Below the pieces are notes generated by a model. It was not told the DNA's origin. It worked only from the letters and a program-made list of their open reading frames with translations, and ran no database searches. Shown piece after piece: positions 1-20,557 of a stretch of DNA of 64,000 nucleotides. Every line of letters begins with the position of its first letter. The stretch's first letter is position 1. The translations under genes and the position numbers were made by a program. Source of the stretch: Flavobacteriales bacterium (GTDB lineage Bacteria > Bacteroidota > Bacteroidia > Flavobacteriales_F > PHOS-HE28). The stretch is taken from the NCBI GenBank assembly GCA_016717305.1, contig JADKFY010000002.1, positions 346,351-410,350 on the forward strand, written 5' to 3'.

Positions 1-3000
1 TGGCCACGCTGAGTTGCGGCCCGTTGTTGGCGGCGATGCTGCATCCTGTCGGCAGGCGCTTGGCGATATCCGCTTCAGCTGCGCGAATGCTCAACATGGA
101 ACCGCTCGGCAACGCCTGCATCATTTTGCCTCGGTTCGCCACGAGGGTGACCGCATCCTTGAGCGAGAACACACCTGCCAAACAAGCGGCTGCGAACTCG
201 CCGATGCTGTGGCCCATCATGGCCTCGGGTACAATGCCCCAATGCATCCACAATTTGGCCAAGCTGTAATGCATGGTGAAGAGCGATGCCTGCGTGTACA
301 CCGTTTGCTTCAACTGTTCGGCAACTTCCTCTTCCTTGCCTTTCGAGGGGAAGACTATGGACTTGAGATCAACGCCCAATTCGGCATTGAACAGGCCGAT
401 GCATTCATCGAAATGCTGTGCGAAATTTGGTTCACTTTCGTACAGGTCGCGCCCCATGTTCACGTACTGCGAACCTTGCCCCGGGAACATGAACACCACG
501 CCCGGCGCGGCTTCGTGCAATTCACGTGTGGATATCGCGGCAACATCTTTGTTCGCAATGGCATCGATCACCTCCTGGTGCGTACCCCCCACGATCACCC
601 TTCTGTGCTTGAACGATCGCCTTCCTACTTTCAGGGTGTAGGCAGCATCAGCCATAGAGGCATCAGGGTTCTTTTCGAGCCAGGTCCGCAGGTTTTCGGT
701 CATGGCATCCAAGCTCACTTTGGTCTTGGCGCTCAAAAAGAACACCTGCTTACCACGTGAATTGCTGGAAGGTACGGGGAGTGGTCCTTCACCCAGGATC
801 ACATGGGCGTTGGTGCCGCCGACCCCGAAAGAAGAAATCCCAGCGACGCGAGGTTTGGAACCACGGGGCCATTTAATGTTCTCATTGGCCACACGGAATG
901 GGCTGTTCTCCAGATCGATCGCCGGGTTGGGCTTCTCAAAACCGAAGTTTGATGGGATCATACCCCGTTGTAACGCCAAGGCCGTTTTGATCACACCTGC
1001 TGCACCTGCAGCGGCCGTGAGGTGGCCGATGTTGCTCTTGACCGAACCGATCGCACACCAATGCGGATCGCTACTGTTCGGAGCATCAACTCCTTTGAAT
1101 GCAAGCGTGAGTGCTTCCACTTCAATGGGGTCGCCCAAAGGGGTGGCGGTGCCGTGCGTTTCCACGTAGGTGATCTCCGAGGCTTGCACGCCTGCATCGG
1201 CCTGTGCCATGGCGATCACGTCTGCTTGGCCGCGAACGCTAGGTGCGGTGAAGCTTGCCTTTTCACTGCCGTCGTTGTTCAACGCGCTTCCTTTTACGGT
1301 GGCGTAGATGTGGTCATTGTCGCGAATTGCATCGTCCAATCTTTTCAGGACGATGATGCCGACCCCATCGCTGAAGCTGGTCCCTTTTCCATTGGCATCG
1401 AAGGTGCGTGTGCTGCCATCAGGGCTATACATGCCGCCGTCGTTGTACACGATGCCGCTGTTGAAGGGCACGGTCAGTGCGATGCCGCCCGCCAGCGCCA
1501 TGTCGCACTCGCCATCGCGCAGTGCCTTGAACGCTTGTGCGATCGCCACCAGCGATGTGCTGCACGCCGTGTGGATGCTCAAAGCAGGGCCACGCAAGTC
1601 GAATTCGAAAGCCAGGCGCGTGGCGATGTAATCCTTCTCGTTGCCGGTCATTACCTGGAATTCGCCCACCTGTTCGATCAGTTCAGGATGGCCGATCACG
1701 TTCTTCGTGAAGTAGGTGTTGTTGCCCATGCCGGCGTACACGCCGATCAACCCGTCAAATTGAGCGGGGTCGTAAGCGGCATCTTCCAACGCGCCCCAAG
1801 CGGTTTCCATGAACACGCGTTGCTGCGGGTCCATCAAGGCGGCCACCCGGGGATTGATCCCGAAGAAACCAGCATCGAACTTGTCCGCATCGGTGATCAC
1901 GCCGCGAGCGGGCACGTAGTCCGGATCGTTCTTAACGGCATCGGGAATGCTCGGGTCCAATTGGTCCTTGGTCCAGGTGGAAACACCATTCTTTTTGTCC
2001 AGCAGGTTCTGCCAGAGTTCTTCCACGTTCTCAGCACCTGGGAATCGCCCTTTCATGCCGATGATGGCGATCTCGCTGCGACGTTTTTCGGTGATGGCGG
2101 CCTGGCGTGTGCGGGCCATTTCGGCGGGCGAAATGCCGCTGTTGCCTCCTGTCAGGAATTCCGCGCAGGCACGGATCGTAGGGTGTTGGTAGAGCTTCAC
2201 GATCGGGAGTTCGAATCCGCGTGATTCCAATTGGGCCACGCATTGGATACTGAGCAGTGAATTTCCGCCGAGGTCGAAGAAATTATCATCGATCCCCACT
2301 TTGTCAATGCCGAGCAGACTGGCCCAAACGGCAGCAACGGCTTCTTCCAGTTGGGAAGTGGGTCGTGCGTAGGGGATATCCAGGTCCGGCCTTTTGATAT
2401 CCGGTGCTGGCAACCCTTTGCGATCGATCTTACCACTTGGGGTACGCGGTAGTTCCGGCACTTTCACGAACGCACTGGGCACCATGTAATCGGGCAGCAA
2501 AGCGCCCAAGTGCTTGCGCAGGTCGTTTGTGGAAACGTGTTCCGTGGCTACGAAGTACCCGACCAAACGCTTAAGGCCGGGTGTGTCTTCACGCACGGTC
2601 GTTACTGCTTGTTGCACCAGCGGATGCTTCTCCAAGGCCACTTCCACCTCGCCCAGTTCAATACGATAACCGCGGACCTTCACTTGACCATCCATTCGAC
2701 CTTTGTAGTCTATGTTGCCGTCGGGCAATTCCACAGCGCGGTCGCCAGTGCGGTACAAGCGGCCTCCTAGGGTGAACGGGTCAGCAAGGAAGCGCTCTGC
2801 TGTAAGGTCTTCTCGATTGATGTAGCCAGCAGCCACACAAGCGCCACCCAAGAACAGTTCGCCTTCCACCTCTTTCTGGACCGGCTGCATGGAATCGTCC
2901 AGGATGAGCAATTTGACATGGTCGATGGCCTGACCGATCGTTGGAAGGCTGGGCCATGATGCGGGATCCCCTTTCAGTTCAAGTTCGCTGACCACATGGC

Positions 3001-3919
3001 CTTCTGTGGGGCCATACTGGTTGCAGAAACGGCACCCGGGAAGTTGGTTGAACAGTTCGGTGATGGCAGGGGTGATCTTCAACTGCTCGCCACTGGTGAA
3101 CACTTCCCGTAAGGAGGTCGGCACTTCGCCGGTACGCTGAACGGCCTCGGCCAGGTATTGGAGTGCCACGAAAGGCACAATGATGCGGTTGATCCCTTCG
3201 GCGATGATCTTCCGCAGGAGTTGGCTGCTGTTCAATCGATCTTCGTCGGTGATAAGGACCAAGGTCCCGCCTTGGGCGAACGTCGTGAAGAGCTCTTGGA
3301 ACGAAACGTCGAAGCTGATGGGGGCGAATTGCAGGGTCTTGGCGCCTTCGTTCAACACGGAAGTGCGCAGCTGCCATTTGATCAGGTTGATCAGCGGAGC
3401 ATGATGCATGGCCACACCCTTCGGCCTGCCGGTGCTGCCTGAAGTGAATAGTACGTAGCACAGATCATCCGGATCCGTTTCGCGCAACTCCATCTTGTTA
3501 GAGGCTGCGGCATTGTCGAGTGCCAATTCTTCGATCAGTAGGACCTTCGCTTTGGAGCCAGCGAAAAGGTGAGCGTGAGCTCTATCGGTGATCACTACTG
3601 GCGGGGCCGCATCCTCCAGCATCAGGGCAATTCGTTCGGAAGGATAGGTCGGGTCGATGGGCACATAAGCCGCACCAGCCCTCAGAATGCCTAGAACGGA
3701 TTTTATCAGATCCGGGGACCTCTCCAAGCAGATGCCTACCGTCCGGTCTTCACCTGAGACCATTGGGGATATGAGAATGGCAAGGCGCTCAGCCTGTTCC
3801 TTTAGCGCTGAATACGAAACGCCATCGGTTCCAAATTGAAGTGCGATCCTTTCACCGTGCACCGAGGCGGTGTGCTCAAAGAATTCATTGACGGAGCGAA
3901 TTGGTCCAGCTACTTTCAT
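1..3919 (-). CDS. Hybrid NRPS-PKS megasynthase, N-terminal part (adenylation - PCP - ketosynthase - acyltransferase ...); runs off the window start
   Basis: Hand translation of the reverse strand from the ATG at 3919 (TAA stop immediately upstream) gives one open frame to position 1. It carries AMP-binding core motifs (LFTSGSTGRPKGV, YRTGD, GRMDGQVKVRGYRIELGEVE, PDYMVP, PSGKIDRK), a PCP motif (FFDLGGNSLL), a KS start (IAIIGMKGRFPGA) with the active-site TACSTS region, and AT motifs (FMFPGQGSQY ... GHSIGE). The ORF track misses it only because it is open-ended. Confidence 0.85.
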   Translation of the reverse strand, partial: MKVAGPIRSVNEFFEHTASVHGERIALQFGTDGVSYSALKEQAERLAILISPMVSGEDRTVGICLERSPDLIKSVLGILRAGAAYVPIDPTYPSERIALMLEDAAPPVVITDRAHAHLFAGSKAKVLLIEELALDNAAASNKMELRETDPDDLCYVLFTSGSTGRPKGVAMHHAPLINLIKWQLRTSVLNEGAKTLQFAPISFDVSFQELFTTFAQGGTLVLITDEDRLNSSQLLRKIIAEGINRIIVPFVALQYLAEAVQRTGEVPTSLREVFTSGEQLKITPAITELFNQLPGCRFCNQYGPTEGHVVSELELKGDPASWPSLPTIGQAIDHVKLLILDDSMQPVQKEVEGELFLGGACVAAGYINREDLTAERFLADPFTLGGRLYRTGDRAVELPDGNIDYKGRMDGQVKVRGYRIELGEVEVALEKHPLVQQAVTTVREDTPGLKRLVGYFVATEHVSTNDLRKHLGALLPDYMVPSAFVKVPELPRTPSGKIDRKGLPAPDIKRPDLDIPYARPTSQLEEAVAAVWASLLGIDKVGIDDNFFDLGGNSLLSIQCVAQLESRGFELPIVKLYQHPTIRACAEFLTGGNSGISPAEMARTRQAAITEKRRSEIAIIGMKGRFPGAENVEELWQNLLDKKNGVSTWTKDQLDPSIPDAVKNDPDYVPARGVITDADKFDAGFFGINPRVAALMDPQQRVFMETAWGALEDAAYDPAQFDGLIGVYAGMGNNTYFTKNVIGHPELIEQVGEFQVMTGNEKDYIATRLAFEFDLRGPALSIHTACSTSLVAIAQAFKALRDGECDMALAGGIALTVPFNSGIVYNDGGMYSPDGSTRTFDANGKGTSFSDGVGIIVLKRLDDAIRDNDHIYATVKGSALNNDGSEKASFTAPSVRGQADVIAMAQADAGVQASEITYVETHGTATPLGDPIEVEALTLAFKGVDAPNSSDPHWCAIGSVKSNIGHLTAAAGAAGVIKTALALQRGMIPSNFGFEKPNPAIDLENSPFRVANENIKWPRGSKPRVAGISSFGVGGTNAHVILGEGPLPVPSSNSRGKQVFFLSAKTKVSLDAMTENLRTWLEKNPDASMADAAYTLKVGRRSFKHRRVIVGGTHQEVIDAIANKDVAAISTRELHEAAPGVVFMFPGQGSQYVNMGRDLYESEPNFAQHFDECIGLFNAELGVDLKSIVFPSKGKEEEVAEQLKQTVYTQASLFTMHYSLAKLWMHWGIVPEAMMGHSIGEFAAACLAGVFSLKDAVTLVANRGKMMQALPSGSMLSIRAAEADIAKRLPTGCSIAANNGPQLSVA

Positions 3920-4537
3920 GCGTTAGAGTCAAAGGTCCGTGTTTCGGGCCATACTGTAGCGTGATCGTGAATGTTCATAACCCTCAAATGGAGGATGATC
4001 TGGTACGGATCCATCAGGCAAAAAGTTCCATTCGTCGGAAAGTTCATAGGCGCTCCGAACTCATTTGACCTCGGCTCAGGAAAATGCTGATCCGTAGGAT
4101 AAAAATAGGCATTGGGCGAAATATTTGAGGAGTTGGACGTCAACATTGTTCACAACTTCATATGATCTAGTCGGTTACAATCGTTCATTGGGCGTTCAAA
4201 ATGGGTCAGTGGCAAGCAATAGAGCATTTCGAAAGGTTATCCACAATACTGGCACGGCGTGGTGTGGTCCTCTACTTTCGCGGCCTTGAACAAGGAAATT
4301 GCTTTGATCGCGACAAGTTCCAGTCTGATATTCAGGCTTTTGAAACGGTCATTGTGAGGACCTAGTACAACTCGAAGAAATCCGTCTCCCGGTCCTCATG
4401 TAACCCTAGCACGCAGTATTTCGATAAACGGACCAACCGATCCGTTCTTGTTTTTCGTTCCGATGCGCACTGCCTGGCCGCCGGAACTCAAAGGAAAGCA
4501 AGATGGTAGGTCGGATCGTTCTCCAACTTGGAACAAT

Positions 4538-7500
4538 ATGGCACGCAGTCTTCTCACCCTTTTCTTGAGCATCGTGGCCTCCTTGGTCATGTCCCAAAGC
4601 AGTTCGGAACGCGCTGCTGTTCGCTTGAACGCAACCGTACAAGCCTCCCCAGCGAGCATTACACTTTCCTGGACAGCGCTTTCCAGTACCAGTTCCATTA
4701 CAGTTTATCGTAAGTTGAAGAGTGCCACAAGCTGGGGCTCTTCGATCGCGAACCCTTCGGCCAGTGCGACCACCTGGACGGACAATAGCGTTGCTTTGGG
4801 TACGTATTACGAATACAAGGTAGTTCGTAGCTCAGGAGGCAAGACAGGCACCGGGTATGTTGCCACAGGTGTCCAAGTTGCACCGACGGATTATCGAGGT
4901 AAGTTAGTTCTCTTGGTGGACAACACCTTGGCTCCTTCGTTGGTCACCGAATTGGGCCAATTGACCCAAGACCTTCGAGCCGATGGTTGGGCCGTATTGC
5001 GAAATGATGTGGCGCGTAATGCCTCTGTGTCGAGTGTCCGAGGCATTGTCCAAGGCCACTACAACAGCGATCCGACCAACGTGAAGGCAGTGTACATTGT
5101 TGGTCACGTTCCGGTACCATACAGCGGCAACACGATGCCTGATGGGCACGCGGAATTCTTTGGTGCAAGGCCGACGGACGGTTACTATGCAGAAATGAAC
5201 GGTTCCTGGACGGACAACAGCGTGAACAATACCTCTTCGAACCGTCAAGAGAATTGGAATGTACCGGGTGATGGAAAATTCGATCAAAGCGAGTTTCCTG
5301 GTGCCATTGAACTTCAAGTTGGCCGTGTTGATATGTATGACATGCCCGCATTCTCTGCAAGTGAAGTGCAGTTGATGAAGAACTACTTGAACAAGGCACA
5401 CAGTTTCAAGCTGAAAGGATGGGCGCCTACCGCCCGTGGGCTCCAGTTCGATAACCTGCAATGGGTAGCGGACCCGCTCGCAGCGGGTGGCTGGAGGAAC
5501 CTTGCACCATTGGTGGGGAATAGTAATATAACTGAACTTGCTCCGTACGGTGCGTCTTTCGGGTCCATGGTAAATAACCAGAGCTACTTGTGGACGAATT
5601 GCAGTTCAGGTGGTCTGTTGGATTTCCAGAACAATTTGTGGCTTTTCATTGGTCAGGACAATGCCGCGATCACCTCGGAACTTGCCACGACCATCTCTGT
5701 GGGTGGTGTCTTCAACATGGGCTTGGGCAGCTACTATGATGATTTCGACAACAAGAACAACTACCTGCGTGCATTGATCGCACGCGGCGATGCCTTGACC
5801 AACTGTTGGTCCGGAATTCCGACGTGGTATTTCCACCATATGGGCATGGGTGACAACATCGGGTACAGCACCATGGTCTCCATGAACAACACAAGCGTGT
5901 ATGCTCCGCTGCACGATGGGTGGCAGTCCAGCATTGGCCACACGCATATCAATTTGATGGGTGACCCCTCGTTGCGCATGAAAATGGTTGCCCCACCTAC
6001 CGCGCTGGTGATCAGCAATTCCGGTGGGCACCCAGCTTTCAGTTGGACGGCATCCACCGAGAGCGTGCTAGGTTACCATGTTTACCAGATCGAAACATCC
6101 GGGTCGGTCACCCGACTAACGACGACGCCCGTCACAACGACCAACTATTCCGATCCCGCGATTCCTTATCAGTCCGGGCGTGAGTACATGGTACGTGCCG
6201 TGAAATTGGAGACGAATTACAGTGGTAGTTACTACAATTTGTCACTTGGTGCAATGGCCACTGCTCCTGGGGGAGCACAGCCGGATTGCTTGGGTGTTTC
6301 CGGCGGAACTGCCACCCCCGGTACTTCCTGCAATGATGGCAACGCGAACACGATCAACGACGTTTGGAGCAATAGCTGCAACTGTACCGGAACACCTGTT
6401 GTTTTTGACTGCCTCGGTGTAGCTAACGGAGCCGCCACTCCAGGTACTTCGTGCAACGATGGCAATTCGAACACGATCAACGATGTTTGGAGCAACAATT
6501 GCAACTGTACCGGAACACCTGTTGTTTTTGACTGCCTCGGAGTTGCTAACGGAGCCGCCACCCCTGGTACGTCCTGCAATGATGGCAATTCGAACACGAT
6601 CAACGACGTTTGGAGCAACAGCTGCAACTGTACCGGAACACCTGTTGTTTTTGACTGCCTCGGTGTAGCTAACGGAGCCGCCACCCCTGGTACTTCGTGC
6701 AATGATGGCAATGCGAACACGATCAACGACGTATGGAGCAACAATTGCAACTGTACCGGAACACCTGTTGTTTTTGACTGCCTCGGTGTAGCCAACGGAG
6801 CCGCCACCCCAGGTACTTCGTGCAATGATGGCAATGCGAACACGATCAACGATGTATGGAGCAACAATTGCAACTGTACCGGAACACCTGTTGTTTTTGA
6901 CTGCCTCGGTGTAGCCAACGGAGCCGCCACCCCAGGTACTTCGTGCAATGATGGCAATGCGAACACGATCAACGACGTATGGAGCAACAATTGCAACTGC
7001 ACCGGAATACCAGTGGTTTACGATTGCCTGAGTGTACCGAATGGTCCTGCCGTGCCAGGAACCGGCTGTAACGATGGCGACCCTAATACGACCAATGACG
7101 TATGGAGCAACAACTGCAATTGTGCGGGGATCCCGGTTGTTTACGATTGCCTAAGTGTACCGAATGGTCCTGCGATGCCAGGAACAAGTTGTAACGATGG
7201 TGACCCCAATACGACCAACGATACATGGAGCAACAACTGCAATTGTGCCGGCACTCCTGTTACGCAAGATTGTTTGGGTGTACCCAATGGCACGGCCCTA
7301 CCAGGTACTTCGTGCAATGACGGCAACGCCAACACGATCAACGATGTTTGGAGCAACGGATGCGCCTGCGCCGGAACGCCAGTTGTCTTTGATTGCCTCG
7401 GCGTTGCCAACGGAACTGCAATACCCGGTGTATCTTGCGATGATGGTGATACACAAACGACCAACGACGTTTGGAGCAACAACTGCAATTGCGTAGGGAT

Positions 7501-9604
7501 ACCTGTTGTATTCGATTGCGCAGGTGTTGCGAATGGTCCGGCGCTACCTGGAACGCCATGCAATGACGAGAACTCGGCCACGGGCAACGACCAGTGGAAC
7601 GCGAACTGCCAATGTGTTGGTCAGTTGATCGATTGCACGGGCACAGCTGGTGGTCCAGCATTGATCGGCACGCCTTGCAACGACAACAATGCGAACACGA
7701 TCAACGATGTGTGGGGCAGTAACTGCAATTGTGCTGGCACTCCTGTTCCTCAAGATTGTTTGGGCGTACCGAATGGCGCGGCCTTGCCAGGAACACCATG
7801 CGATGATGGGGACGTGAACACGACCAACGACGTTTGGAGCAACAACTGCAATTGCGTTGGAATACCTGTTGTTCTCGATTGCGTAGGTGTTGCGAATGGT
7901 CCGGCCCTACCTGGAACGCCATGCAATGACGAGAGCTCGGCCACGGGCAACGACCAGTGGAACGCGAGCTGCCAATGTGTTGGTCAGTTGATCGACTGCA
8001 CGGGCACAGCTGGTGGTCCAGCATTGATCGGCACACCATGCAACGACAACAATGCGAACACCACGGGTGATGTTTGGAACAACAACTGCAATTGCGTAGG
8101 GATACCTGTTGTATTCGATTGCGCAGGTGTTGCGAATGGTCCGGCCCTACCTGGAACGCCATGCAATGACGAGAACTCGGCCACGGGCAACGACCAGTGG
8201 AACGCGAGCTGCCAATGTGTTGGTCAGCTGATCGACTGCACGGGCACAGCTGGTGGTCCAGCATTGATCGGCACGCCATGCAACGACAACAATGCGAACA
8301 CCACGGGCGATGTATGGAACAGCAACTGCAATTGCGTTGGAATACCTGTTGTATTCGATTGCGCAGGTGTTGCGAATGGACCTGCCCTACCTGGAACGCC
8401 ATGCAATGACGAGAACTCGGCCACGGGCAACGACCAGTGGAACGCGAACTGCCAATGTGTTGGTCAGTTGATCGATTGCACGGGCACAGCTGGTGGTCCA
8501 GCATTGATCGGCACGCCATGCAACGACAACAATGCGAACACCACGGGCGATGTATGGAACAGCAACTGCAATTGCGTTGGAATACCTGTTGTTCTCGATT
8601 GCGTAGGTGTTGCGAATGGTCCGGCGCTACCTGGAACGCCATGCAATGACGAGAACTCGGCCACGGGCAACGACCAGTGGAACGCGAGCTGCCAATGTGT
8701 TGGTCAGTTGATCGACTGCACGGGCACAGCTGGTGGTCCAGCATTGATCGGCACGCCATGCAACGACAACAATGCGAACACCACGGGCGATGTATGGAAC
8801 AGCAACTGCAATTGCGTAGGGATACCTGTTGTATTCGATTGCGCAGGCGTTGCGAATGGTCCGGCCCTACCAGGCACGCAGTGCAATGACGAGAACTCGG
8901 CCACGGGCAATGACCAGTGGAGCGCGAACTGCCAGTGTGTTGGTCAGTTGATCGACTGCACGGGCACAGCAGGTGGTCCAGCACTTCCAGGAACCCCCTG
9001 TGATGATGATGATGCCACTACGGTAGGCGATGTATGGTCCACGAACTGCAATTGCTCAGGATCTGCGTTGCCACCCCCGGCGGATTGCGCGGGTGTTGCA
9101 GGTGGTAGTGCCTTCCTGGATGACTGTGGAACATGCGCTGGTGGATCAACAGGGATCGTACCTAATGCAGATGTGGACTTCGATGACCTTATCCCGTGCG
9201 AGGATAATTGCAGCGGGGTCTGGAATCCGCAGCAAACGGATTATGATGAGGACAACATCGGTGATGCCTGTGACAATTGTGTGTGGGTCTACAACCCGTC
9301 CCAAGCCGATGAGGACGGGAACGGTATCGGTGATGCGTGTGATGTACGAGTTGGGATCGCCGAGTTGACCGATGGTTCCAATTTCGGTTTCTTCCCCAAC
9401 CCGACCAATGGCAATGTGAACATGGTATGCACGGTCGCTGGAGCACGAATGCTCAAGTTCTACAATGCAGTGGGTGCCTTGGTCTTTGAGGCCCCAGTTC
9501 GGAAACAAATGGATCTCCGCGAACTTGCGATGGGGGTCTACACGGTGCTTGTGCTGGATGCGGAAGGCAGCCCGCTGGCACAGACGAGGCTCGTTCGCCA
9601 ATAA
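4538..9604 (+). CDS. Giant secreted T9SS cargo protein: signal peptide, FN3-like domain, gingipain (C25)-like domain, about 24 tandem 40-aa Cys-rich repeats, thrombospondin-type-3-like Ca-binding repeats, T9SS C-terminal sorting domain
   Basis: Track ORF 4448..9604; the likely true start is the Met of [21 protein letters not shown] (signal peptide). N-terminal region shows C25-like landmarks ([11 protein letters not shown] ..., ELQVGRVD, ... [10 protein letters not shown]). The repeat consensus is [41 protein letters not shown]. The Ca-binding repeats read [14 protein letters not shown] / [12 protein letters not shown]. The C-terminus [12 protein letters not shown] ... [23 protein letters not shown] is a type-A T9SS sorting domain. 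Confidence 0.8.
6281..9060. repeat. Coding tandem repeat array, 120-bp period (40 aa, 4 Cys per unit), about 24 units
   Basis: Directly visible 120-nt periodicity. The first six units are nearly identical. The minus-strand long ORFs 6232..7002 and 7701..8984 are artefacts of this periodicity. Confidence 0.9.
7860..8990. repeat. Near-identical 240-bp super-repeats (two alternating 40-aa repeat variants), about 5 copies
   Basis: Units beginning ATACCTGTTGT(A/T)TTCGATTGCG... at about 7872, 8102, 8342, 8582 and 8822 differ by only a handful of nucleotides. A diverged copy lies at about 7499. Confidence 0.85.
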
Positions 9605-12477: not shown

Positions 12478-14871
12478 GTGCCTACTTTCTTCAATTTCAG
12501 GGTTCTCCTTTTTCAGTCCGTTCGGATGCTGATACTTCGGCTTTGTGCTGTGACCTTCTTCTATTTCATCTCCTTCAGCTCGTTTGCGCAAAGAACACAG
12601 GCGGGTTGTGATCTTACACTGAGCGGCTCGGTGATCGATGAGCACGACAAGGATGGACTCTCCTTTGCGGAGATCTACTTGCCGGAATTGTCGCGTGGAA
12701 CCGTCGCTGATGAGAAGGGGCACTTCAGGATCGATGGGCTTTGTAGTGGGCGGCTGTTGGTCCGGGCCATGCATTTGGGTTGCGAACCTGTTGAACGGAT
12801 GCTCAACTTGACCAAGCACGAAGTGGTCCAATTCAAGTTGGAACACCACGCCCACGAGTTGAAGGAATTCGAGGTGGCGCGCAACCGGCCTGATGAGAAC
12901 GTGGGCCAAGCACGTAACGTATTGGACAAGGCCGATATGGAGAAGAATGGTGGTAGGAACATGGCGGAAATGCTCGGTCGGCTCCCTGGTGTCAATGTGC
13001 TTTCCACGGGCCCGACCATTGGCAAGCCGGTGATCCATGGGTTGAGCGGCAACAGGATATTGACCTTGAACCAAGGGATCCGTCAAGAAGATCAACAATG
13101 GGGTACGGAGCACGCACCCAACTTGGATCCCTTCAGCAGTGATCGTATTACCGTAGTAAAGGGGGCTGCAAGCGTGCAATACGGCAGTGATGCCATCGGT
13201 GGGGTGATCGTTACCGAACCGATCGCCCTTCCGCGGTCGGCTGGAATGAGCGGTGAACTGCGCGCAGGCGGCCAACTGAACGGGGCGGGTGGTGGTGGCA
13301 ACGCCATGTTGCAGGGTGGAATGAAAGGAGTTCGGGGTGTCGGTTGGCGCGTGCAGGGCAGTGGCAAGTTGCTCGGTGATTCCCGATCACCTTACTACGT
13401 ATTGAGTAATACTGGCATGAATGAACAGGGCTTTTCAGGCGGGATCGGATATCGGAACATGCGTTTCAATGTTAGCGGTTACTACAGTTGGTTCGCTCGT
13501 GAACTTGGGATACTTCGCGCTTCGCACATCGGCAACCTCACCGATCTGGAGAGCTCGATAACGACCGGAACGCCGTGGTATATAGATGACTTCACCTACA
13601 CCATTTCTTCACCAAGACAACGAGTACAGCACCACTTGGCCAAAACCGAACTGGGTTATGCCGTTAGCGACCGGGGCAGAATAGTGCTCACCTACGGTTT
13701 CCAAACCGATGCGCGCGCAGAGTACGACATTCGGAGGGGGAACAGAAGCGGGGTACCGGCATTGGACCTCTCCCTTACCTCACATACCGGTGAACTAGTG
13801 TTCAACCATTGGTTGGGGCGGAAAGTGCATGGTAAGATCGGAGGTAGCGGACTCTTCCAGCGGAACATCAACCAACCGGGCACGGGGATCCGTCCACTTC
13901 TCCCGAACTACGAGAAGAGGAGCGGGGGGGTATTCGTTGTCGAGCATTTTCCGCTATCGGAAAAGTTGGAATTGGAAGCGGGAGCCCGGTTGGAAGGGAC
14001 CTTCATCGAGGTGGCGAGGTATACGCAGGAAGGTTTGTACGAAAGGCCACATCACCAGTATGTGAACCATGCATTTTCCGCAGGTGCGAATTGGACCGTT
14101 AAGGATAGTGTTCGGTTGCGTGCGAATTTTTCAAGTGCATTCAGGCCACCGCATGTAAGTGAATTGTACAGTGAAGGTTTGCACCATGGGGCCGCAGCGA
14201 TCGAGAACGGCGATCGCCTTTTGGGCAGTGAACGGTCCACCAAAGCGACCTTGGATGTAGAAGCGCGTTGGTTCGGCGGTAAACTGCGCACGGATGTCAC
14301 CCTGTACGTTGACCGGATCAACAACTACATTTATTTACGCCCCAATGGTACAGCACTAACCATTCGTGGCGCATTTCCGGTATTCAATTATGTCGCGACC
14401 AACGCGAACCTTTACGGAATGGACGCCTCGTTGCAATATGCCTTCACACCTCGCTGGAGCTTGCGCTCGCGAACCAGCATTGTGCGTGGCCGCGATCTGG
14501 TACGGAATGAATGGCTGTTCCAGATGCCTAGTGACCGCACGGAGAACAGTTTGGTCTGGTCGAAGGAACGTGCGGGTAAATGGAGTGCCTTGGAGTTCGG
14601 GTTGATCAGTACCTACGTCGCACAACAGCTCCGCGTTCCGGCAGACTTGGACTACACAGCTCCGCCCGGATCGTACCACCTCGTGGGCTTTCAAGCCAGC
14701 GCTTCAAAGTCCATGGGAAAGCACGAACTCCGTTTCGGGGTGAACGGATACAACCTTTTCAACACAGCCTACCGCGATTACATGGATCGGTTCCGTTATT
14801 ACGCCGATGCTCGGGGTATGGACCTTGCGATCTGGTTACGTTTCAGCTTCGGCAAGAACAACAAGGACTGA
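12478..14871 (+). CDS. TonB-dependent outer-membrane receptor (CarboxypepD_reg-like N-domain + plug + 22-strand barrel)
   Basis: N-terminal LSGSVIDEHDKDGLSFAEIYLPE...GHFRIDGL (carboxypeptidase-regulatory-like), plug motifs (MAEMLGRLPGVNV, HGLSGNRILTLNQGIR), long barrel region. Likely true start at the internal Met of MLILRLCAVTFFYFISFSSFAQ (about 12526). Confidence 0.85.
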   Translation: MPTFFNFRVLLFQSVRMLILRLCAVTFFYFISFSSFAQRTQAGCDLTLSGSVIDEHDKDGLSFAEIYLPELSRGTVADEKGHFRIDGLCSGRLLVRAMHLGCEPVERMLNLTKHEVVQFKLEHHAHELKEFEVARNRPDENVGQARNVLDKADMEKNGGRNMAEMLGRLPGVNVLSTGPTIGKPVIHGLSGNRILTLNQGIRQEDQQWGTEHAPNLDPFSSDRITVVKGAASVQYGSDAIGGVIVTEPIALPRSAGMSGELRAGGQLNGAGGGGNAMLQGGMKGVRGVGWRVQGSGKLLGDSRSPYYVLSNTGMNEQGFSGGIGYRNMRFNVSGYYSWFARELGILRASHIGNLTDLESSITTGTPWYIDDFTYTISSPRQRVQHHLAKTELGYAVSDRGRIVLTYGFQTDARAEYDIRRGNRSGVPALDLSLTSHTGELVFNHWLGRKVHGKIGGSGLFQRNINQPGTGIRPLLPNYEKRSGGVFVVEHFPLSEKLELEAGARLEGTFIEVARYTQEGLYERPHHQYVNHAFSAGANWTVKDSVRLRANFSSAFRPPHVSELYSEGLHHGAAAIENGDRLLGSERSTKATLDVEARWFGGKLRTDVTLYVDRINNYIYLRPNGTALTIRGAFPVFNYVATNANLYGMDASLQYAFTPRWSLRSRTSIVRGRDLVRNEWLFQMPSDRTENSLVWSKERAGKWSALEFGLISTYVAQQLRVPADLDYTAPPGSYHLVGFQASASKSMGKHELRFGVNGYNLFNTAYRDYMDRFRYYADARGMDLAIWLRFSFGKNNKD

Positions 14872-17959: not shown

Positions 17960-20557
17960 TCAACGCCCTTGACGTAGCACTTCCACACGTTGGGTGTGGA
18001 TGGACGGGCCTTGTTGGATCTGCAAGAGATATACCCCTTCGGCAAGTGCCGAGAGGTCCATGGAGACCATTTCAGCATTCCCTTGCACGCTATGGGCGAG
18101 TCGCCCTTGAAGATCGAGGATGGAAATGGACGAACGTGTACTTGCGGGCAGGATCAGAGTCAATTTCCCGGAGGTCGGATTGGGATACAACATCACCTCG
18201 GTCGGAACGAGTTCTTCAAGGTCAGTGCTGGTGTCGATGATGATGCCATAGTCTTCAGTTTCCCCGTACACATAGTTGAAGCATGGATCGGTAGGGGATG
18301 GTTCGGTTCCTAGATGGAAAACGCCCCGGACTCTCATCCGAGTAGAACCAAGGACGGCATTGACCGGCACATTGAACGCCATGGAAACGACCTGGCCGGC
18401 CGCTGTTGTAGCCACCTCGCCGAGCTTCTCGGAAGCCTCAAAAACATCATCTTGATCGTAATCTATCCAAGCTGCATAGTTGTCCGCCTCGTATGAACCT
18501 CCTTCAATGAACAAGGTCTGGTCGGTGCCGACCCCGATCGGGGTGAATTGCGTGGCTACATAATTGTTGTAGGTCGGCCCATCGGTACCTCCTGTATTGC
18601 TGTTGTTGATCGCTGCGAGTTCCACGCCGTTGATATAATCACCATCCGCAGGGCCTGTAAGGGATGTTGGAATGCAAGGGCCTGCGATGGGAGTAGTGAT
18701 GGTGATCCCGTAATCCTCGGTCTCGCCATATGCGTAGTTGAAACAAGGATCGGTCGGTGTTGGTTCCCCGGTCCCGTGGTACACACCACGGACACGCAAA
18801 GTCGTTGTGCCCAAAGTAGCACCTGCAGGAACTAGGAAGTTGATCGCCTGTGTTTCACCGACAGTTGTAGTAGCAAATTCGCCCAGTTTCTCGGAAGCCT
18901 CGAAACTGTCGTCCTGATCGTAATCGATCCACGCTGCATAATTGTCGGGCTGAAAGTCGCCTGATGTAATAAAGATGGTTTGGTTGCTACCCCGGGCCAA
19001 CGAAGTGCTGAAGGAAGAAGTGTAGTTGGTATACGTCGGTCCGGTATTGCTGCCGCTGTTCACATTGTTGATCGTAACCAATTGCACCCCGTCGATGAAG
19101 TCGTCATCCGCTGTGCCATTCGCCGATGTGGGGATACAGGGACCAGTTACGGGCGTGGTGATCGTGATCCTGTAATCTTCCGTTTCACCAAAAGCATAGT
19201 TGAAGCAGGGGTCCGTCGGCGTTGGTTCTCCAGTGTTATGATAGACACCTCTTACCCTCAGGACGGTGTTGCCCAATGCAGCCCCGGCGGGTACCACGAA
19301 GTTTATCGCCTGCACTTGACCGATCGCGGTGGTTGCGAATTCACCGAGTTTCTCTGAAGCCTCAAAGGTCTCATCACCATCATAGTCGATCCATGCAGCG
19401 TAGTTGTCAGGTTGGTAATCTCCTGCAGTGATGGTTATGGTTTGATTACTGCCGCGTACCAATGAGGCTGAAAGAGTAGCAGTATAGTCGGTATAGCTCG
19501 GCCCGGTATTGCTGCCACTGTTCACGTTATTGATCGTACCCAATTGCACGCCATCAATGAAATCATCTTGGGTGGTCCCGGAGGTTGATGTGGGTATGCA
19601 GTAACCGGTCGGGGTGGATTGGCACGCATTGGTGTTCAGCAATTGGCTACGTACCCCGGTAAGGACACCGGCCATATAGCTGGACTGTTGATTGGTGAAC
19701 ATGCGTGTGCAGCTCGCGTAGTCCATGAAATTCTCATACTGCGTTAATGTCCCGCACTTCATTAGGTTCGTGTTCGAGCAGGAATAAGTTGGGCTGTCCG
19801 TGGTTGGTGTATCGGCGAAGCCATCCGCGTTAACGCAACCACCGTCATCATCGAAGGTGTGCTGGAGGCCGAAGTAGTGCCCGATCTCATGCGTGGCCGT
19901 GCGGTCGCCAGGTTCCGTTCCGTAGTCGTAGTCGATCACCAATCCATCAATGTTGCTTCCCACCACGCCACCAACTGGCAAGTACGCATAGCCCACGGTA
20001 ATGAAGCCACCTGTGGCACCACTTGCGATGTCGCATATCCAGATGTTCAAATAACGATCCGTGTCCCATGGAGCACGGCCATCGGGAGCCGATTTCATAT
20101 CGTTTGTCTCCGTGTCAGGATCGAACCACGTTTGTGTCGTTTGTGTTCGCGTGATCCCTGTGGTGGCAGCTCCGTTCGGGTCCACTTGGGCAAGGCAGAA
20201 GTTGAAACCGACATTCCCAATGCTGCTTGTAAATTGGGAACGCACACTTCCGATGTCCGTATTGCTCGCGGAATAGTCCGCGTTCAATTCGTCGATGATC
20301 GCTTGGATGGTTCCAGTGGAAACGTTTTCGGGGGTGGTATTGTAGACAACATGGACCACAACGGGAACGGTGTACGTGCCACCGCGCTGGACAAGATCAA
20401 CCCGGGGTAATGCATCAAGAAGGTTGGTGGACAAGCCTTGCGACTGCAAGTACTGTTGCGTGTGCTTCTGTGCACTGCAGGTCCGGTGTTGTTGGGACTG
20501 GGCATTCAAGACCGCAGCGGTGAACAGCAGGCCTCCGAGAAGTATGGTTCGTGTCAT
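17960..20557 (-). CDS. Secreted zinc metalloprotease (metzincin, M43/cytophagalysin-like) with three GEVED domains and T9SS C-terminal sorting domain
   Basis: HEIGHYFGLQHTF is the HExxHxxGxxH metzincin motif. Three repeats of about 125 aa each end in (F/Y)GE(T/V)EDY(R/G)ITI, the GEVED-domain signature. The C-terminus MLYPNPTSGKLTLIL ... GVYLLQIQQGPSIHTQRVEVLRQGR is a T9SS sorting domain. Signal peptide at the N-terminus. Confidence 0.85.
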   Translation of the reverse strand: MTRTILLGGLLFTAAVLNAQSQQHRTCSAQKHTQQYLQSQGLSTNLLDALPRVDLVQRGGTYTVPVVVHVVYNTTPENVSTGTIQAIIDELNADYSASNTDIGSVRSQFTSSIGNVGFNFCLAQVDPNGAATTGITRTQTTQTWFDPDTETNDMKSAPDGRAPWDTDRYLNIWICDIASGATGGFITVGYAYLPVGGVVGSNIDGLVIDYDYGTEPGDRTATHEIGHYFGLQHTFDDDGGCVNADGFADTPTTDSPTYSCSNTNLMKCGTLTQYENFMDYASCTRMFTNQQSSYMAGVLTGVRSQLLNTNACQSTPTGYCIPTSTSGTTQDDFIDGVQLGTINNVNSGSNTGPSYTDYTATLSASLVRGSNQTITITAGDYQPDNYAAWIDYDGDETFEASEKLGEFATTAIGQVQAINFVVPAGAALGNTVLRVRGVYHNTGEPTPTDPCFNYAFGETEDYRITITTPVTGPCIPTSANGTADDDFIDGVQLVTINNVNSGSNTGPTYTNYTSSFSTSLARGSNQTIFITSGDFQPDNYAAWIDYDQDDSFEASEKLGEFATTTVGETQAINFLVPAGATLGTTTLRVRGVYHGTGEPTPTDPCFNYAYGETEDYGITITTPIAGPCIPTSLTGPADGDYINGVELAAINNSNTGGTDGPTYNNYVATQFTPIGVGTDQTLFIEGGSYEADNYAAWIDYDQDDVFEASEKLGEVATTAAGQVVSMAFNVPVNAVLGSTRMRVRGVFHLGTEPSPTDPCFNYVYGETEDYGIIIDTSTDLEELVPTEVMLYPNPTSGKLTLILPASTRSSISILDLQGRLAHSVQGNAEMVSMDLSALAEGVYLLQIQQGPSIHTQRVEVLRQGR

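Follow-up and report, generated by a model that had tools for sequence, protein, structure and literature searches.

The window, by which is meant the whole stretch of 64,000 nucleotides analysed here, opens inside a gene, and the question raised by the locus is what this gene and those beyond the window edge make. The sequence-only reading had proposed that a hybrid NRPS-PKS megasynthase (A-PCP-KS-AT) starts here and belongs to a cluster continuing past position 1, with a flexirubin-like pigment or a siderophore-like lipopeptide as its product.

Translation of the minus strand of positions 1-3919 gave 1306 codons with zero stops, from an ATG at 3919-3917 to a frame still open at window base 1, where the gene is cut by the edge. 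Codons 1-1306 of gene 1 thus occupy 2..3919 (minus strand), approximately 60% of the gene, with the remaining 864 codons lying beyond position 1. The adenylation domain A1 (aa 14-497, 2429..3880) matches AMP-binding PF00501 and AMP-binding_C PF13193 in Pfam with an E value of 5.5e-67, and scores 400 bits against the NCBIfam model for amino-acid adenylation domains, TIGR01733, for which the cut-off is 317. It is followed by a PCP (aa 527-589, 2153..2341; PP-binding PF00550) with its attachment serine, S553, in DLGGNSL, and by a KS (aa 615-994, 938..2077) that matches the N-terminal ketoacyl-synt profile PF00109 at 1.2e-69 and the C-terminal profile PF02801 at 2.5e-38. The Cys-His-His triad of the KS is intact (C787 in TACSTS, H922 in HGTAT and H966 in NIGH). 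A KS-AT linker (aa 997-1122, 554..931; PF16197, PF22621 and PF22336 in Pfam) leads to the N-terminal half of an AT (aa 1142-1306, 2..496; Acyl_transf_1 PF00698), whose match at aa 1142-1302 spans only profile positions 1-156 of 319, so that the window edge truncates the AT as well. This AT is in cis: its GHSIGE motif lies inside the window and a malonyl-type HAFH motif lies just outside, at aa 1334 of the complete protein described below. A 1306-codon frame with domain scores of this order is far beyond chance. Positions 2-3919 are therefore the uninterrupted start of a hybrid NRPS/cis-AT type I PKS gene with the order A-PCP-KS-linker-AT, and the proposals of a hybrid gene start and of a loading unit made of an amino-acid A-PCP fused to a PKS module were borne out.

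The remainder of the gene is found on a metagenome contig (L001), positions 1-5001 of which match window positions 5001-1 at 99.3% nucleotide identity. On this contig gene 1 stops approximately 2.6 kb past the window edge, and the complete protein, P0001, has 2170 aa with the order A-PCP-KS-AT-ACP-AMT. It is 99% identical to the window part over 1306 aa (7 differences). In P0001 the AT is complete at aa 1142-1444; the ACP, with the attachment-serine motif MGLDSL, and an Aminotran_3 domain (AMT, aa 1710-2069) both lie outside the window. The AMT is an embedded class III aminotransferase homologous to that of MycA, matching the MycA AMT structure 6KFM at 2.5e-119 over 445 residues, while free-standing GSA aminomutases match far more weakly (about 1e-48) and the NCBIfam BioA models match weakly, at 1.6e-26, well below their cut-off. 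The PLP lysine is conserved, in YGK, when aligned to the MycA AMT. All the catalytic residues of gene 1 are thus intact: KS C/H/H, AT GHSIGE and HAFH, both carrier serines and the AMT lysine. The 2170 aa contain A, PCP, KS, AT, ACP and AMT domains and no KR, DH or ER; the AT-ACP linker of about 90 aa is too short for any reductive domain.

The cluster does run beyond position 1, as had been claimed, though for a short distance. On L001 the start of gene 2 (C-A) sits 40 nt past the gene 1 stop codon; the gap in the clade is 12-60 nt. Gene 2 is visible to residue 863 in the window's own species and to residue 1194 in a relative at 91% identity (L081), where the contigs end. In relatives at 73-83% identity it is a single NRPS module, C-A-PCP-TE, in which the TE can be seen, and it is directly followed by an Sfp-type (ACPS-type) PPTase; no relative above 83% identity shows the PPTase. 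Beyond the PPTase the relatives carry housekeeping genes (a PIF1-type helicase, DUF3822, RsmD and CoaD). A few loci have two downstream NRPS modules rather than one. As judged from these relatives the cluster is compact, with three genes in about 11.5 kb, and the picture of a megasynthase in a large cluster has to be given up. There is no gene for a fatty-acyl ligase or starter C domain in the cluster, so that nothing points to a lipopeptide.

More than 100 protein clusters and about 36 species-level genomes contain gene 1 at 74-83% amino-acid identity, and its synteny is conserved; this indicates purifying selection. Given this synteny the cluster looks vertically inherited within a Flavobacteriales lineage that has not been cultured and is known mostly from activated sludge and fresh water, and its conservation across dozens of species argues for a real physiological role. 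The sequence-only reading had laid itself open to a match with a known biosynthetic gene cluster, flexirubin for example. None was found: no NCBIfam equivalog reaches its cut-off, and in a survey of activated-sludge MAGs, including MAGs of this lineage, none of its BGCs clustered with MIBiG entries (PMC9765116). No characterised counterpart of the cluster was found; the type of assembly line is familiar, but this variant of it is uncharacterised.

Judged by colinearity and domain content, it is likely that the three genes, A-PCP-KS-AT-ACP-AMT, C-A-PCP-TE and the Sfp-type PPTase, make a diamino pseudo-dipeptide. The domain order, the intact catalytic residues, the content of the cluster in relatives and its conservation are what was observed, and from these we infer the substrates, product, release mode and biological role. 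L-Proline or a closely related cyclic imino acid would be loaded by A1 onto the PCP, and the KS would condense this starter with malonyl-ACP supplied by the malonyl-specific AT. The beta-keto group would be kept since there is no KR, DH or ER domain. The AMT would then turn the ACP-bound beta-keto thioester into a beta-amine, as in MycA. The expected unit, 3-amino-3-(pyrrolidin-2-yl)propanoyl-S-ACP, is a vicinal (beta,gamma) diamine. Gene 2 would couple it, through a C domain with an intact HHxxxDG motif, to a hydrophobic amino acid, and the TE would free a pseudo-dipeptide of approximately 240-272 Da, either linear or cyclised via a free amine. The product is thus probably a small diamino pseudo-dipeptide and not that of a giant pathway, a pigment or a siderophore. 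A more far-reaching version can be offered tentatively: a new small metabolite, either a proline-derived vicinal-diamine pseudo-dipeptide or its diazepanedione/aminopyrrolizidinone form, might be a lineage-wide, vertically inherited compound expressed from an ECF-type promoter, with a variable second residue giving species-specific versions that could, for instance, act in signalling, bind a metal or inhibit a peptidase.

The identity of the starter depends on the A1 pocket. The specificity code was taken from an alignment to GrsA-PheA, the sequence of which was checked against PDB 1AMU residues 225-526, and it reads D235 V236 Q239 (I or F)278 F299 S301 Q322 V330 V331 K517, i.e. DVQ(I/F)FSQVVK, with position 278 being I or F depending upon the alignment. 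The residues picked out by eye in the sequence-only reading, D-V-Q ... V-V-(K), were correct, and its suggestion of a proline-like code is supported: the code is a variant of the proline pocket DVQFIAHVVK, differing at three of the nine variable residues (I299F, A301S and H322Q). The pocket is therefore proline-like but, given these three differences from authentic proline domains, the starter may differ from proline itself. The same architecture could use an imino acid that is hydroxylated or has a different ring size, or else a small polar amino acid, selected via F299, S301 and Q322, and so make another diamino acid conjugate. The code is invariant in about 30 Flavobacteriales clade loci/genomes, including the three changes, which suggests selection for a distinct substrate, and some sources annotate homologues as DltA-like, with NCBIfam DltA models matching gene 1 below their cut-offs. 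However, D235, V236, Q239, V330, V331 and K517 are as in proline domains, and the best single-domain match of A1 in the PDB is the proline-activating module 1 of TycB. Outside the clade, proteins of the same architecture from Kiritimatiellales, Bacteroidia, Bacteriovorax and a proteobacterial MAG retain the canonical proline code, DVQF(I/T/L/V)AHV(V/T)K (one Bacteroidia locus ends ITK), which agrees in alignments with the pocket residues of the proline-activating GrsB1 and TycB1 structures. Furthermore, none of the genes in the conserved three-gene unit would serve to make a modified imino acid. A starter other than proline is possible in the light of this evidence, but we consider it unlikely. 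In gene 2 the second A domain has the code DAFLLGMYSK in this species; most relatives have a Val-like code there.

A prolyl-carrier-to-pyrrole pathway of the pyoluteorin/prodigiosin type was also considered and rejected: the cluster has no gene for a prolyl-S-carrier dehydrogenase (acyl-CoA-dehydrogenase-like), the A and PCP are fused to a PKS, and the PltF-type ligase 6O6E is only a distant match to A1 (E value 1e-50).

The mode of release could also differ from that proposed. Colinear processing is not guaranteed since two loci (L034 and L035) have a gene 1 homologue (A-PCP-KS-AT-ACP-AMT) with no NRPS, C or TE nearby, and in those lineages release in the absence of a TE must be possible. The proline-derived beta-amino or beta-keto thioester might close via the pyrrolidine nitrogen to give a bicycle of the 1-amino-pyrrolizidin-3-one type, with the NRPS module decorating this bicycle or taking a different nucleophile; on chemical grounds a secondary amine gamma to the thioester would favour such closure to a five-membered lactam. 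Against this, gene 2 begins 12-60 nt after gene 1 with an intact C domain, as is usual for direct chain transfer, and in one locus (L028) the two genes are fused as a single ORF. Self-release as the normal outcome is improbable. Even so, the pyrrolidine nitrogen, being free and gamma to the thioester, could form a lactam before condensation takes place.

The surroundings of gene 1 bear on its expression and on the claim of a large cluster. The sequence-only reading had gene 1 share a 618-bp divergent region with a giant T9SS cargo gene. The divergent neighbour exists, as an ORF at 4448-9604 (plus strand), which probably starts at ATG 4538, where a signal-peptide-like stretch follows, although the gene caller on a near-identical contig picked ATG 4463; the gap is thus 543-618 bp depending upon the start. 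Taking the likely start, the intergenic region is 3920..4537 (47% G+C) and the neighbour is a secreted protein of 1688 aa (4538..9604). Its match to Pfam Por_Secre_tail, at the extreme C-terminus, is 19.3 bits and so below the 27-bit cut-off, but an 'FPNPTNG' stretch can be aligned to the C-terminal domain of an unambiguous T9SS cargo encoded elsewhere in the window. The neighbour is probably a T9SS cargo, with a weak but plausible C-terminal domain. Homologues at 42-70% identity lie upstream on the opposite strand in those clade loci that have upstream flank, so the neighbour is syntenic with the cluster throughout the clade. Neither a sigma-70-type match nor the strict Bacteroidetes TAnnTTTG motif was found in 3920..4537. 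A 35-nt element, CCGACGAATGGAAC-N17-CGTA, is present at 4004..4038 (minus strand), 86-120 nt upstream of the gene 1 start codon; it occurs once in the 64-kb window and forms an island of conservation amid diverged upstream DNA in seven relatives (L081, L024, L021, L022, L006, L009 and L025). It resembles an ECF-sigma promoter (GGAAC / CGT) and may act as one.

A reading of gene 1 as the opening module of a large multi-modular NRPS-PKS cluster for a flexirubin-like pigment or a siderophore-like lipopeptide would be in keeping with its running off the window and with a TonB-dependent receptor at 12478-14871. This is now very improbable. In the near-identical contig and in more than 30 relatives the gene stops at about 2170 aa, and then come one (in a few loci two) C-A-PCP-TE module, a PPTase and housekeeping genes. 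What loads the starter is an amino-acid A domain, with Asp235 and Lys517 in place, rather than a fatty-acyl ligase. The genes for the cargo, a phosphofructokinase and a BNR-repeat protein separate gene 1 from the receptor, 8.5 kb away, and among about 30 loci there is a single one in which a TonB-dependent receptor adjoins the cluster. Neither flexirubin-type nor chelator-building genes were found in the window or flanks. A flexirubin-type cluster is marked by Dar-type and type II FAS-like KS genes and an aromatic ammonia-lyase; such pigment genes are absent from the Pfam matches of ORFs between 9.7 and 24.8 kb in the window and from the gene tables of contigs L002 and L003. Neither the pigment nor the siderophore-like lipopeptide is supported as product, and an NRPS siderophore cluster was rejected as no genes for chelating groups were found and the receptor lies behind unrelated genes; nor does the cluster carry lipid-loading genes. 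Finally, that gene 1 is a decaying or silent remnant, for which one could cite the absence of a canonical promoter, is scarcely credible against an intact 1306-codon frame with every catalytic motif present and the purifying selection described above.

The proposed diamino pseudo-dipeptide is of interest since little of the natural-product chemistry of the Bacteroidota has been charted and no member of this lineage is in culture. The machinery is ordinary, NRPS-PKS with known domains, and its value is for genome mining and not as a new principle of biology. At about 11.5 kb the three genes are small enough for direct synthesis and expression, and an invariant first A domain with a varying second one amounts to a natural analogue series. 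An amino-acid starter with MycA-type transamination predicts a beta,gamma-diamino acid block for which no characterised biosynthetic precedent was found.

Several known systems share parts of this logic. MycA receives a long-chain fatty acid via an acyl-AMP ligase domain, relies on the trans malonyl transferase FenF and feeds a seven-residue lipopeptide line, whereas here there is a canonical amino-acid A-PCP with a proline-like code, a cis AT and a separate C-A-PCP-TE protein adding one amino acid. An iturin-family lipopeptide synthetase was rejected on account of this loader, the likeness to MycA being at the amination step. There, mycosubtilin/iturin MycA (6KFM/6KFU) and gene 1 have KS-ACP-AMT in common, which in MycA converts, and in gene 1 would convert, a beta-keto to a beta-amino thioester on the ACP ahead of an NRPS C domain; the role of the MycA AMT domain has been described (PMC3870968). 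The microginin (mic) and microcystin McyE-type modules likewise combine a PKS with an aminotransferase so that a short peptide begins with, or contains, a beta-amino acyl unit. Microginins themselves are short peptides that inhibit proteases, and their cluster uses an octanoate starter, a free-standing FAAL and ACP, several NRPS modules and tailoring genes (PMC9594780); unlike mic, the present cluster has no fatty-acid loading, halogenase or monooxygenase.

The domain order of gene 1 is identical to that of Pedobacter heparinus C6XWU5, catalogued as 'A-CP-KS-AT-CP-PLP1' in a survey published in 2013 on the PLP domains of assembly lines (PMC3870968) and with no known product. Loci in Pedobacter, Mucilaginibacter, Mariniflexile and Euzebyella are 39-46% identical over the full length and have C-A-PCP-TE directly downstream, followed in Pedobacter sp. 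BAL39 (L051) by a PPTase. These relatives differ in having non-proline A1 codes (e.g. DAQFTGIVCK and DAMFIGIVCK) and Gly-like A2 codes, and so probably make different compounds.

The modules for detoxinine (detoxin/rimosamide) and dolaproine extend a carrier-loaded proline by one malonyl or methylmalonyl unit and reduce the beta-keto group to a hydroxyl with a KR. Gene 1 has no KR but has an AMT, and the amino analogue is predicted. The KAPA-to-DAPA step of biotin synthesis (BioF/BioA) follows a like logic, by analogy and not by pathway homology: the enzymes are free-standing and act on free acids, whereas the intermediates of gene 1 would be carrier-bound, but in biotin synthesis an amino acid is taken through a Claisen-type condensation to an alpha-amino ketone, which a class III aminotransferase turns into a vicinal diamine, and for gene 1 the like is predicted.

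The minus strand of window positions 1-3919 was found on translation to hold 1306 stop-free codons, from an ATG at 3919 until the frame leaves the window. Pfam divides the product of this gene (gene 1) into an adenylation domain (residues 14-497, hereafter A1), a PCP (527-589), a ketosynthase (615-994), a KS-AT linker (997-1122) and the first half of an acyltransferase (1142-1302, profile positions 1-156 of 319). TIGR01733, the NCBIfam amino-acid adenylation model, gave 400 bits against a cut-off of 317. The stop-free frame, the Pfam domains and this score are together far beyond chance, and the A-PCP-KS-AT order given in the sequence-only reading is therefore correct. The KS triad is complete (Cys787, His922 and His966) and the AT shows the motifs GHSIGE and HAFH, the latter of the malonyl type.

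A protein search with the window protein returned P0001, a protein of 2170 residues which is 99% identical across all 1306 residues, and more than 100 further protein clusters at 74-91% identity, nearly all of about 2150-2180 residues and carrying Aminotran_3 in addition to the Pfam families named above. The contig encoding P0001 (L001, 10.2 kb) matches window 5001-1 with 99.3% nucleotide identity and therefore represents this locus from a sister strain. On this contig the full gene 1 is A-PCP-KS-AT-ACP-AMT, where AMT is an aminotransferase domain; the attachment serines of both carriers are intact and there is no space in the gene for a KR, DH or ER. The AMT aligned over 445 residues with the structure of the MycA AMT of mycosubtilin synthetase, 6KFM (E 2.5e-119), was matched some 70 orders of magnitude less well by free-standing GSA aminomutases, and keeps the PLP lysine (YGK). 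None of the NCBIfam equivalogs SolG, MxcG, AusA, EntF, Pks13, PigJ, GntE and others passed, all being far under cut-off. The window and L001 differ at 35 nucleotides, 31 of them within 400 bp of the KS domain (window 1427-1826). Here the window protein is identical to that of a more distant relative, L059, and another variant is common to L001 and a relative at 91% identity (L081). This stretch is probably a tract of homologous recombination.

A second gene (gene 2) starts on L001 40 nt past the gene 1 stop codon and opens with C and A domains. In L002 and L003, contigs of more than 200 kb from a relative at 82%, gene 2 is C-A-PCP-TE (1321 aa) and is followed in order by an ACPS/Sfp-type PPTase, a PIF1-type helicase, DUF3822, RsmD and CoaD. 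The C domain carries HHxxxDG and the TE, seen in relatives, GYSFG. The parts of the cluster were searched by tblastn against 80 loci from species-representative genomes. The order gene 1-gene 2-PPTase is kept throughout the Flavobacteriales clade (about 36 genomes at at least 70% identity), as are the flanks: a homologue of the divergent cargo gene borders the cluster at one end, PIF1, DUF3822, RsmD and CoaD at the other. Past the cargo gene, on the window side, lie PFK, a BNR-repeat protein, a TonB-dependent receptor, PurK and an outer-membrane protein, then an M43 peptidase, Rpe, RpoD and PNPase, the whole run being housekeeping or unrelated. Because the conserved three-gene order stands between housekeeping or unrelated genes, this is a small cluster and not the start of a megacluster; the large cluster first thought to begin here reduces, as seen in relatives, to one further synthetase gene and a PPTase. 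Flexirubin-type and siderophore products, also suggested in that reading, find no support in the window neighbours or in the gene tables of L002 and L003. On these genome comparisons the cluster is taken to be a chromosomal, vertically inherited unit of three genes and about 11.5 kb. Gene 2 is by far the less conserved part, its C and A domains being 54-59% identical between L001 and L002 where the parts of gene 1 are 78-91% identical.

Adenylation codes were read against GrsA-PheA, the copy used being confirmed as equal to PDB 1AMU residues 225-526. The A1 code, DVQ(I/F)FSQVVK, does not vary across about 30 clade loci. Proteins sharing the six-domain architecture of gene 1 were found in Kiritimatiellales, in other Bacteroidia, in Bacteriovorax and in a proteobacterial MAG, with the code DVQF(I/T/L/V)AHV(V/T)K, one Bacteroidia locus ending in ITK. 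The D-V-Q, I-A, H and V-V pocket residues of that code recur in alignments to the structures of the proline-activating first modules of GrsB and TycB, and TycB1 is the best single-domain structural match for the window's A1. The low-confidence proline-like code of the sequence-only reading was thus right in kind, but three pocket substitutions are fixed in the clade (I299F, A301S and H322Q), so that either proline or one of its close analogues may serve as starter. Homologues from the cyanobacteria Nostoc, Tolypothrix and Aulosira (L040-L049, L052, L055, L071, L075 and L080) are 44-50% identical over the full length; their A1 codes are of the Val type (DAFWLGGFTK and similar), and they lie in larger multi-module clusters with unusual A codes such as DISPITLIWK and DTENMGALTQ. 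The code of the second A domain (A2, in gene 2), read in L001 (9078-10223), L081 (9205-12786) and loci L002-L033, is species-dependent. It is Val-like in most species (DALWLGGTFK or DALWLGGFTK), Gly-like in a few, and DAFLLGMYSK in the window's species and its 91% relative, with DAFLLG(M/I)(Y/F)SK as the form in this lineage. With A1 invariant and A2 changing, the loci make up a natural analogue series.

The domain order suggests a route in which the PCP would be charged with the proline-like starter, and one decarboxylative condensation with malonyl-ACP would give a gamma-amino-beta-keto thioester. From this the AMT would make a beta,gamma-diamino thioester, in the way that MycA acts on fatty beta-keto thioesters (PMC3870968). 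The C domain would then pass the diamino unit to the second amino acid and the TE would hydrolyse or cyclise the product. The main mechanistic rival is that the diamino or keto intermediate plausibly also leaves the enzyme unaided, by lactamisation through the ring nitrogen. In two Bacteroidia MAGs (L034, 9860-16675, and L035, 9911-16639) neither an NRPS nor a TE lies near the A-PCP-KS-AT-ACP-AMT gene, which stands by itself, and in a Kiritimatiellales MAG (L028, 1106-11377) genes 1 and 2 are fused in one ORF of 3423 aa. These standalone and fused variants of the cassette suggest that the intermediate can self-release. With a proline starter the expected product is a pseudo-dipeptide with a calculated mass of about 257-271 Da, or a cyclic form of it that has lost water; the calculated [M+H]+ values are 258.181 with Val and 272.197 with Leu/Ile for linear products, and 240.171 and 254.186 for the cyclised ones.

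The divergent neighbour of gene 1 is an ORF at 4448-9604 (+) with an ambiguous start. ATG 4538 precedes a signal-peptide-like stretch and ATG 4463 is called on the near-identical sister contig, therefore the intergenic gap is 543-618 bp; the 618 bp originally reported holds for ATG 4538 but not for ATG 4463. The assignment of this gene as T9SS cargo is weakened by a Pfam score for the C-terminal domain of 19.3 bits, under the 27-bit cut-off, but the domain is rightly placed and aligns with its counterpart in another window protein that is clearly T9SS cargo. Cargo homologues adjoin the cluster throughout the clade; a functional link was set aside, as only synteny within one clade was shown and it reaches equally to the housekeeping genes on the far side. 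An M43 metallopeptidase of 865 aa (17960-20557, minus strand) has three GEVED domains together with a C-terminal sorting domain that is clearly of the T9SS kind, and a TonB-dependent receptor is encoded at 12478-14871 (+); neither is tied to the cluster by conserved synteny.

The intergenic region contains neither a sigma-70-type promoter nor the strict Bacteroidetes TAnnTTTG (-7) motif, and Rfam gave no match in the whole window at gathering thresholds. A 35-nt element, CCGACGAATGGAAC-N17-CGTA, at 4004-4038 on the minus strand (86-120 nt upstream of the gene 1 start codon), occurs once in the window and forms an island of conservation in the otherwise diverged upstream DNA of seven related loci (L081, L024, L021, L022, L006, L009 and L025). 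Its likeness to an ECF-sigma promoter is a lead and not a finding, because only about one in four upstream regions of the clade contain the element. A search with an HMM of this motif gave no extra copies in the window or in upstream regions outside the training set, and the motif is therefore a sub-clade element and not a regulon marker. An ORF of 76 aa (3916-4146, minus strand), whose stop codon overlaps the gene 1 start codon (ATGA), was considered as an MbtH-like or leader gene. It had no Pfam or NCBIfam match and, compared with the 91% relative, was only 49% identical as protein and 77% as DNA; it was rejected as a gene and is probably spurious.

The identical domain string was catalogued in 2013, without a product, for Pedobacter heparinus C6XWU5 (PMC3870968). 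A survey of activated-sludge MAGs, which takes in a MAG series also met among these loci, found NRPS-PKS hybrids mostly in Flavobacteriales and none of its BGCs clustering with MIBiG entries (PMC9765116). No characterised counterpart emerged from a search of part of the literature that covered this domain string, its specificity codes and Pro-KS-AMT pathways. Microginin was dropped as a candidate, its loading being by a free-standing FAAL and ACP (PMC9594780). The system is a compact, conserved NRPS-PKS-AMT with a proline-like starter, provisionally described as uncharacterised, and a good target for genome mining which will not surprise a specialist. Although the defining lipid loading of the iturin family is absent from this cluster, its proposed working at the amination step is like that of the mycosubtilin/iturin, microginin and McyE modules.
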